Assembly (NCBI RefSeq): GCF_011045215.1
Contig: NZ_CP049201.1
Direction: 5' to 3' (one strand)
From: Escherichia coli
GTDB lineage: Bacteria > Pseudomonadota > Gammaproteobacteria > Enterobacterales > Enterobacteriaceae
Length of the DNA stretch: 64,000 bases
Shown here: positions 59,391 to 61,143 of the stretch, piece by piece
How the letters are laid out: each line of letters begins with the position of its first letter
Numbering within the stretch: position 1 is the first letter of the stretch
Made by a program: the position numbers and the translations under genes
Notes under the pieces: model-generated
Databases searched by the model: none
Seen by the model: only the letters and a program-made list of their open reading frames with translations
Told to the model about the DNA's origin: nothing

Positions 59391-59491
59391 TTTTATCTTT
59401 TCTGACCAAATGCGTATTTTCATGAAAGGAGATCACTCAATAACCCCCTGTGTCAGCATAGTTGTCGCCTCAACTTTTTAAGGAGATAACA

Positions 59492-60004
59492 ATGCCAGGA
59501 CAACCAATATCAAGTGAGCTCAAAGAGAAAGGACTGATATGGCTTTTACCACCATACTGCTGGTCACATCGTCAGATAGCCCGTAAGCTGAAGATCAGTG
59601 CCTCAGTTGTATCAAAATGGAGATATGAGTTAGTGGAGCAAGGACTTTTACCTGAAAATGAAAAGATTACCTCCGTTGATGTTGAAGACTGGACACCGGA
59701 GCGTCGATTCTCAGTTGTTCTTGAGACGGCTACGCTGTCAGAAATGGAGCTTGCTGATTATTGTCGACGCATGGGATTGTTTGTTGAACAGGTTAAAGAA
59801 TGGCGGGCTATCTCAATTCAGGCGCATGAAAAAAAATTGACGGAAAATATTCGAACAGACAGGGCATTGCGTGACGCAAAAAATAAGTTACGAGAACTGG
59901 AGAAAGAGCTTAAGCGCAAAGATAAAGCTCTGGCGGAAGCTGCAGCCCTGCTTATATTGAGGGAAAAGTTCAATGCCCTCTGGGACAACAGCGAGGAAGA
60001 CTGA
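59492..60004 (+). CDS. IS3-family transposase OrfA (HTH)
   Basis: ORF 59462..60004; likely start at the ATG of MPGQPISSELKEKGL preceded by AAGGAG; HTH RQIARKLKISASVVSKW and a leucine-zipper-like C-terminus. Confidence 0.8.
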   Translation: MPGQPISSELKEKGLIWLLPPYCWSHRQIARKLKISASVVSKWRYELVEQGLLPENEKITSVDVEDWTPERRFSVVLETATLSEMELADYCRRMGLFVEQVKEWRAISIQAHEKKLTENIRTDRALRDAKNKLRELEKELKRKDKALAEAAALLILREKFNALWDNSEED

Positions 60005-60207
60005 CCCCTCTCCTGGAGTGGCGTAAAATTATTGCTCTTGTCCGTGAGGCCATCTCCAACGGCGCCCGGAAAAGTCAGACTTGTAGGTGTATCGGTATTT
60101 CTATTCGGACACTTCAGCGCTGGACTGATGGCAACGTTATTACCACGGATCGAAGATCCGATACTGTAAACAGATCTCCCCGAAATAAGCTGTCAGAAGC
60201 GGAAAGA

Positions 60208-61029
60208 TTGCAGATACTGGAGTTGTGCAACTCTCCAGAGTTTGCATCCTTGCCTCCAAATGTAATCGTGCCAACTCTGGCAGACAGAGGGACTTATATT
60301 GCTTCTGAATCAACCTTTTATCGTGTACTGAAATCAGCCAACCAGTTGACGAAAAGATCCCGAGAATGCCAGTACAAACGGCCTGATGTACTCAGGGCTG
60401 TTGCGCCGAATCAAGTCTGGAGTTGGGACATCAGCTATTTGCCGTCCTGGGTCAGAAGCCAGCATTTTTACCTCTATATGATCGTCGATATTTACAGTCG
60501 CAAAATTATTGCTGCAGAGGTATTTGCCAGCGAGTCTGGAACACATGCAGCAGAACTACTCCAGCGTGCAGTATGGAATGAAAAATGTTCATCCAACAAT
60601 CTGGTACTCCATTCTGATAACGGTGGTCCCATGCGCAGTTATACGTTGTTGGCGAAAATGTATGCGCTTGGAGTGCTAAGTTCTTATTCCCGGCCAAGAG
60701 TCAGCAATGATAACCCTTACTCAGAATCTTTGTTCCGGACTCTCAAATATTGTCCCTGGTGGCCTGAGAACGGTTTTCGCACTATTGATGATGCCAGAGT
60801 ATGGGTAAACCGTTTTGTAAACTGGTACAACTTTGAACATAAGCACAGCGGGATCAAATACGTCACGCCAGCCGAGCGTCATCAAGGTAATGACATGAAA
60901 ATACTGGCAGCCAGAAAAGCAGTATACCAGCTGGCACGCGAACAGCACCCTGAACGTTGGGGAAAGCATCTACGTAACTGGGACTACATATCAGAAGTCT
61001 ACCTGAATCCAGAAAAAGAGGCTGCATAA
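60208..61029 (+). CDS. IS3-family transposase OrfB (DDE catalytic domain)
   Basis: 273-aa ORF with rve-type motifs (VWSWDISYL ... HSDNGGPM ... NPYSESLFRTLK); the frame stays open upstream of the annotated Met, consistent with an OrfAB fusion. Confidence 0.85.
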   Translation: MQILELCNSPEFASLPPNVIVPTLADRGTYIASESTFYRVLKSANQLTKRSRECQYKRPDVLRAVAPNQVWSWDISYLPSWVRSQHFYLYMIVDIYSRKIIAAEVFASESGTHAAELLQRAVWNEKCSSNNLVLHSDNGGPMRSYTLLAKMYALGVLSSYSRPRVSNDNPYSESLFRTLKYCPWWPENGFRTIDDARVWVNRFVNWYNFEHKHSGIKYVTPAERHQGNDMKILAARKAVYQLAREQHPERWGKHLRNWDYISEVYLNPEKEAA

Positions 61030-61143
61030 CGTAATTTTATTACAAAAGGCGACAACTACCTTGAAAAACGCCGGTTACTCACCGATCTCCTTCACGGTAA
61101 TACGCAAATATCCACAACCTTGTTTGTTGTACCAGCGGAAATT

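Follow-up and report, generated by a model that had tools for sequence, protein, structure and literature searches.

Organization of the element, its ends and its reading frames

The window analyzed here, a stretch of 64,000 nucleotides of Escherichia coli DNA, carries on its plus strand a complete insertion sequence of 1696 bp at 59411..61106, with 5'-TG...CA-3' ends, inverted repeats of approximately 60 bp and two overlapping reading frames. The first of these, orfA (59492..60004, plus strand), encodes 170 aa, while the second, the orfB frame (59926..61029, plus strand), lies at −1 relative to orfA. The ends at 59411 (TGCG...) and 61106 (...CGCA) were placed from the inverted repeats, from alignment to other copies and from the limits of BLAST matches. 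Independent copies with different flanks have the same ends, and the BLAST matches stop at the same bases: similarity to other copies begins exactly at TGCGTATT (59411) and finishes at AATACGCA (61106) whatever the flank, and these two ends, which are of the TG...CA type, are common to seven copies with different flanks. A preliminary description of this DNA had placed the element at 59440-61080; it is indeed found there, with approximately 30 bp missed on each side relative to the true ends.

The left inverted repeat (59411..59470, plus strand) is imperfect over its roughly 60 bp and contains the terminal block TGCGTATT followed by a conserved subterminal block, TCAGCATAGTTGTCGCC, while the right inverted repeat (61047..61106, plus strand) was defined from repeat pairs, local alignment and the comparison of copies. 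Three collinear inverted-repeat pairs were identified (59411-59426 with 61091-61106, 59426-59445 with 61073-61092, and 59459-59470 with 61047-61058), and local alignment of the left end to the reverse-complemented right end joins the three into a single imperfect terminal repeat of approximately 60 bp. The subterminal block is kept in relatives from Salmonella, Photorhabdus, Vibrio, Pseudomonas and Shewanella. A promoter scan returned 2 sites against 2.8 expected from shuffled sequences, none of them in the left repeat, and a promoter at the circle junction, judged by eye, looked poor with a spacing of 19-21 nt.

The limits of orfA were set from the ORF table, the sequence itself and domain searches. 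Its ATG at 59492 is preceded at a distance of 6 nt by the Shine-Dalgarno sequence AAGGAG (59480..59485, plus strand), read directly from the sequence, so the earlier estimate of about 170 aa from an RBS-preceded ATG is borne out; the ORF table gives the same frame as 59462..60004 (plus strand), or 180 aa from a TTG at 59462. Three parts can be recognized in OrfA: an extra N-terminal helix-turn-helix (HTH) region at residues ~24-52, the canonical OrfA module of IS3 at residues ~67-166, in which a probable HTH_Tnp_1 is joined by a coiled stretch rich in leucine, and lastly a short tail. The N-terminal region appears as a weak HTH match (HTH_23/HTH_29) at residues 24-52, ahead of the start of the IS3 model at residue 76. 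Within the canonical module, HTH_Tnp_1 reaches 23.1 bits in OrfA alone compared to the Pfam cut-off of 24.1 (E 8.7e-5, residues 67-140), the NCBIfam model transpos_IS3 aligns OrfA residues 76-166 to model positions 7-96, and the leucine-rich segment LRELEKELKRKDKALAEAAALLIL was recognized by eye only.

Counted from 59926, where it opens, to its stop at 61029, the orfB frame has 367 codons; its first part overlaps orfA by 79 nt, and ATG, GTG and TTG are all absent from it before 60208. It contains HTH_23/HTH_32 regions and an rve DDE core, with Pfam scores of 8.8e-17 for rve and 2.7e-12 for rve_3 and with HTH_32 also found, and it reaches 184.6 bits against transpos_IS3, where the cut-off is 160. 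These Pfam and NCBIfam scores show that the element is genuine and does not stem from a fortuitous ORF. Its catalytic triad consists of D at 60427-60429, D at 60616-60618 and E at 60724-60726, forming a D(62)D(35)E motif with K at E+7 in ESLFRTLK (codons checked against the sequence). Assignment to the IS3 family, as originally proposed, is thus supported by a transpos_IS3 score above cut-off, an rve core, the D(62)D(35)E motif, an orfB in the −1 frame and repeats ending in TG...CA.

The frameshift site and the fused transposase

Both frames are open only over 59926-60004, so a shift from one to the other must fall in this interval. The probable −1 slip site within it is GGGAAAAG (59961..59968, plus strand), with the core tetramer A_AAG at 59965-59968 and the zero-frame codons AGG GAA AAG at 59960-59968. 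The motif sits 36 nt before the orfA stop, a distance that is usual for the IS3 family. It had been suggested that the frameshift window might lie earlier than the annotated stop and thereby account for the length of OrfA; the shift does precede the stop, trivially, by these 36 nt, and it does not shorten OrfA.

To place the motif in context we compared nine loci, namely the window copy, a sister copy at 96% identity and seven relatives whose aa identities range over 48-89% (loci from E. coli, Salmonella, Photorhabdus, Vibrio cidicii and V. fluvialis, an ISPsy31-family locus from Pseudomonas and an ISSpu6-family locus from Shewanella). The orfB frame is in the −1 frame in all nine, with an overlap of 67-79 nt. 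GGGAAAAG is invariant in the Enterobacterales and Vibrio elements (7/7), and the ISPsy31- and ISSpu6-family loci read CGA/AGA AAA AAG, that is, the canonical A_AAA_AAG, at the same codons; A_AAG or A_AAA_AAG is therefore found at homologous codons in 9/9 elements. No other tetramer of E. coli comes close to A_AAG in its tendency to shift, A_AAA_AAG is among the most efficient −1 heptamers of this species, and such Lys-codon motifs predominate in elements of the IS1 and IS3 families (PMC4066793). GGGAAAAG itself is not a canonical X_XXZ_ZZN heptamer and the tetramer rule alone applies to it; the P-site GAA would re-pair with GGA via G·U at the middle position.

A bulged hairpin is predicted at 59973..60024 (plus strand), starting 4 nt past the slip site, a spacing which fits the 4-10 nt rule used in PMC4066793. 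Its minimum free energy of −21.3 kcal/mol corresponds to a z of −2.55, with 3 of 200 shuffled sequences folding as well. The same fold is predicted in all nine sequences, in which 90% of cells are paired compared to 48-61% with slid partners. No pair was changed on both sides (0 covarying pairs) and shuffled alignments equal the observed covariation values; since the region is doubly coding, conservation of the hairpin may reflect protein constraint alone. When the entire element was compared to Rfam at E≤1, none of the known frameshift-stimulating RNAs was matched. From the folding predictions, the hairpin is a plausible candidate for a frameshift stimulator. Of the slippery heptamer and downstream structure sought in the preliminary description within 59.8-60.2 kb, an A_AAG tetramer in place of a canonical heptamer and a predicted hairpin were thus located.

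The fused protein of 512 aa reaches 209.9 bits against NCBIfam NF033516 (transpos_IS3, cut-off 160) in a single alignment that takes fused residues 76-463 to positions 7-368 of the 369 in the model and crosses the junction at residue ~158. The fact that the IS3 model is continuous across the proposed junction is good evidence that both frames encode one protein. When the junction used by NCBI is adopted, the product matches P0001, 'IS3 family transposase [Escherichia coli]', at 100% identity. The NCBI junction (...R|GKVQ...) and our own (...REK|VQ...) differ by one residue, G158 vs. E158, which is a matter of annotation convention.

With these features in place, expression of the element can be pictured as follows. 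Translation from the ATG at 59492 would normally stop at 60004 and yield OrfA (170 aa) as the default product, which presumably binds DNA and has a regulatory role, its two helix-turn-helix regions being accompanied by a leucine-rich dimerization segment. A minority of ribosomes would slip back by one base at A_AAG (59965-59968, in GGGAAAAG), perhaps aided by the hairpin, and would then read the orfB frame to 61029 to produce a 512-aa OrfAB transposase combining the HTH regions with the DDE integrase core. The expected substrate of this OrfAB transposase is the pair of ~60-bp inverted repeats with their TG...CA ends, and we infer that the window copy would be active in transposition, which by analogy with characterized family members would involve a circular form as intermediate (see PMC5771124 and PMC6211511 for background). 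On the whole we are highly confident that a single intact copy of an IS3-family insertion sequence widespread in Enterobacterales occupies this region and makes OrfA as well as OrfAB by a slip at A_AAG.

It is also necessary to consider whether OrfA and OrfB could act as separate, unfused proteins, an IS481-like transposase together with an accessory regulator. The orfB frame alone does cover positions 4-283 of the 284 in the IS481 model, nearly its full length, and has HTH_23/HTH_32 regions and an rve core of its own, but the IS481 scores of 108-121 bits are far under the cut-off of 224, whereas the IS3 model passes; initiation at the first ATG, GTG or TTG in the orfB frame, at 60208, would delete the HTH regions; and the slip motif is conserved. 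We therefore regard separate proteins as very unlikely. Membership in the IS481 family was likewise rejected on these scores and on the presence of two ORFs here, IS481 being a single-ORF family.

That the orfA/orfB split is instead a mutational frameshift in a decayed pseudogene with no programmed signal seems highly improbable, since nine elements, with aa identities as low as 48%, have the −1 arrangement, the overlap length and A_AAG in common, the IS3 model is unbroken across the junction, and the window copy shows zero indels across the coding region relative to a copy annotated as a 'programmed frameshift' (described below). Some close copies are damaged, as a pseudogene would be: the E. 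coli RM8082 copy (L001) is flagged 'frameshifted' by NCBI, and L023 likewise. No single uninterrupted 512-aa ORF was found among the clade loci examined. Finally, transcriptional or translational slippage on a run of eight A in orfA (59829-59836, in phase A_AAA_AAA), which would leave a functional OrfA part of ~115 aa, would correspond to the earlier window of the preliminary description and has a precedent in the transcriptional slippage on A9 documented in IS1447 (PMC6211511), can be dismissed as extremely improbable because a shift at this run cannot reach orfB, two TAA stops (59911 and 59923) closing the −1 frame past it, and because the run is not conserved (the 96%-identical copy L002 reads AAAAGAAA) and the canonical OrfA module and leucine-rich segment, which match the IS3 model, lie beyond it.

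Length of OrfA and relation to other IS3-family elements

The preliminary description had called OrfA unusually long, and this does not hold up. OrfA is 166-175 aa in each of the nine clade loci examined (48-100% aa identity), InsA of IS150 in E. coli K-12 is 173 aa, and the OrfA of ISSau2 reaches 251 aa (PMC5771124); among the other OrfA-type proteins of K-12, InsE of IS3 has 99 aa and InsC of IS2 has 121 aa. A 170-aa OrfA is the norm for its clade, and OrfA is long because an extra N-terminal HTH of ~75 residues precedes the canonical IS3 OrfA module. An OrfA of ~170 aa in an IS3-family element is accordingly no anomaly when sequences are scanned.

A named relative is ISPsy31 of Pseudomonas syringae pv. 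actinidiae, an ISfinder-registered element to which 98% of the fused protein aligns at 51% aa identity. ISPsy31 belongs to the IS3 family, measures 1667 bp, is present in 54-88 copies per genome and is demonstrably mobile, with recent insertions such as those in hrpS (PMC6053426, PMC5895724). The NCBI locus of the ISPsy31 family has an OrfA of 175 aa, an orfB in the −1 frame with an overlap of 70 nt, and a slip site at homologous codons, which reads A_AAA_AAG as opposed to GGGAAAAG in the window element; it also has the subterminal repeat block TAGTTGTCGC in common with the window element. The ISSpu6 family of Shewanella ('IS3-like element ISSpu6 family transposase') shows 48% aa identity, and its locus resembles the window element in having an OrfA of 166 aa and an orfB in the −1 frame with an overlap of 70 nt, but differs in its slip site (A_AAA_AAG) and in its host lineage. 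Characterized elements of the same organization, the prospect that the preliminary description had set against its own reading, are in substance provided by these ISPsy31- and ISSpu6-family relatives and by the NCBI annotation of the identical protein.

IS150 of E. coli K-12 (insJ/insK, 1443 bp) is like the window element in its InsA of 173 aa, −1 orfB and DDE core, and also in the layout of InsA, where residues 66-172 align to the IS3-model start and an extra HTH_28 at residues 10-60 lies ahead. It is only distantly related, with a BLASTP E of 0.05 for OrfA and 27% identity over 172 aa (50 bits) for OrfB; InsB is 283 aa compared to ~353 aa here and IS150 is 250 bp shorter. Since the sequences are remote, the likeness to IS150 is architectural only. 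IS3 of K-12 (insE/insF, 1255 bp as annotated) belongs to the same family as the window element, and of the three OrfB proteins compared from K-12 it is InsF that matches best (31.7% over 120 aa, 60 bits). IS3 differs in its OrfA of 99 aa with a single HTH_Tnp_1, its shorter overall length and its short repeats, and it likewise uses an A_AAG-type tetramer with downstream structure (PMC4066793). Placement in the IS150 subgroup was considered and not adopted, as BLASTP comparison to the K-12 IS150, IS3 and IS2 proteins gives 27-32% identity in the catalytic core with no clear preference, and we assign the element to no subgroup.

The suggestion of a less common subgroup was essentially right as to a different subgroup, the element showing only this 27-32% core identity to IS3, IS150 and IS2 and grouping with proteins that NCBI assigns to the ISPsy31 and ISSpu6 families, and wrong as to rarity. 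Among 5426 complete E. coli genomes, 2099 contain DNA that matches the element (mostly in part) and a protein search returned at least 7996 homologues at E≤1e-10, so the clade is not rare. The ISPsy31/ISSpu6/E. coli clade is characterized by a length of ~1.65-1.75 kb, a ~170-aa OrfA with an extra HTH, and repeats of at least 60 bp with a subterminal block; its OrfB alone resembles a whole IS481 transposase, and its target duplications are variable, at 5-7 bp. It is conceivable, though we consider it doubtful, that the clade forms an IS3 subgroup of its own between classical IS3 and IS481, within which the Enterobacterales/Vibrio branch swapped A6G for the weaker GGGAAAAG. If true, this exchange of A6G for a motif that acts through its tetramer only would lower transposase output.

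Copies of the element, target duplications and surroundings

Sister copies with 96% DNA identity have the same ATG start and the same ends as the window copy and measure 1695 bp; the window copy, at 1696 bp, differs from them by one extra G in the right repeat and in having no target duplication. The corresponding RefSeq products are WP_371415529.1, WP_096488207.1, WP_085953974.1 and WP_085950854.1. A 96%-identical chromosomal copy, which lies beside papG-II/tia and uses the same ATG, bears the label 'IS3 family transposase, programmed frameshift', assigned by NCBI by homology only, and the RefSeq products of three copies on plasmids are equal to it in length. Near-full-length copies, defined as those covering at least 80% of the query, are present in 253 of the 5426 complete E. 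coli genomes, where the best full-length DNA match is 98.3%. Plasmids have matches as well, in 952 records, with near-full-length ones in 101, and these include Klebsiella, Shigella and Salmonella. A literature search found no IS3-family element of 1695 bp or 1696 bp, and the only name attached by NCBI is the generic 'IS3 family transposase'.

Two kinds of variation were observed among close copies. The A8 run at 59829-59836 in orfA is A7 in the 98.3%-identical copy of E. coli RM8082 (L001), which also has a 2-bp and a 3-bp insertion, and the sequences suggest that this run is a hot spot of mutation and not a recoding site. More than 15 plasmids of Shiga-toxin E. coli, including pO113 (L022), have copies 98.3-98.8% identical to the interior of the element (59444-61073). 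In these pO113-type copies (L022, L012 and L014 were compared), the outermost ~33 bp differ at both ends (59411-59443 and 61074-61106) and resemble the longer-repeat type of Salmonella and of another E. coli element, and thus repeat tips seem to have been exchanged between otherwise near-identical variants.

IS3-family target duplications are of 3-4 bp in most subgroups and of 5 bp in the IS2 group. Seven other copies of the present element (L001, L002, L004, L005, L007, L009 and L012) have duplications of 5, 5, 5, 6, 6, 7 and 7 bp, comprising AGGCG, ACAAA and AACAG at 5 bp, CCTTAA and GCTCGG at 6 bp, and AATATAC and GCTGAAA at 7 bp, which is longer and more variable than the usual 3-4 bp. The window copy, with the flanks ...CTGACCAAA on the left (59400-59410) and AATATCCAC... 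on the right (61107-61117), has no target-site duplication (CCAAA|...|AATAT), and L003 likewise has none. Because the duplication is absent, arrival of the window copy by transposition at this exact site is undocumented.

The two flanks are unrelated to each other. The left flank (59066-59410, minus strand) holds the 3' portion of a yfdX-family gene that is intact in E. coli C5 (612 nt, 94% identity) but is cut here at the IS end, with ~270 nt of its 5' end missing; the ORF table retains only a 44-aa ORF (59066-59200) from this remnant. Within the remnant, just outside the left IS end, lies a terminator-like hairpin (59375-59397, plus strand), GCCCTCTTGAGGGT followed by T7, and a terminator consensus scan gave 2 sites compared to 1.6 expected by chance. 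On the other side, a 211-aa ORF beside the IS (61613-62248, minus strand) corresponds to the 'helix-turn-helix domain-containing protein' of C5, where genes for a DUF465 protein and a PerC-family regulator come after the HTH-protein gene in an island-type module. The wider region (52000-64000) is a mosaic of IS481, ISEc8/IS66, ISEc12/IS21 and other IS3-family pieces with island fragments, and also holds the genes for a GTPase family protein and a PapB/FocB regulator; no plasmid or complete E. coli record covers more than 52% of it. In C5, the sequences that flank the window copy are 46 kb apart and in opposite orientation, with the same IS beside neither. Since the C5 flanks are arranged in this manner and are free of the IS, the element marks a rearrangement junction, which probably arose from recombination between two copies or from an adjacent deletion or inversion.

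The element is already known, ordinary and already annotated, and its practical importance is small, as is expected for a routine mobile element. For annotation, its ends are to be given as 59411 and 61106, and orfA and orfB are to be joined as one programmed-frameshift transposase gene. The window copy is also to be noted as marking the junction of a rearrangement that truncates a yfdX-family gene.
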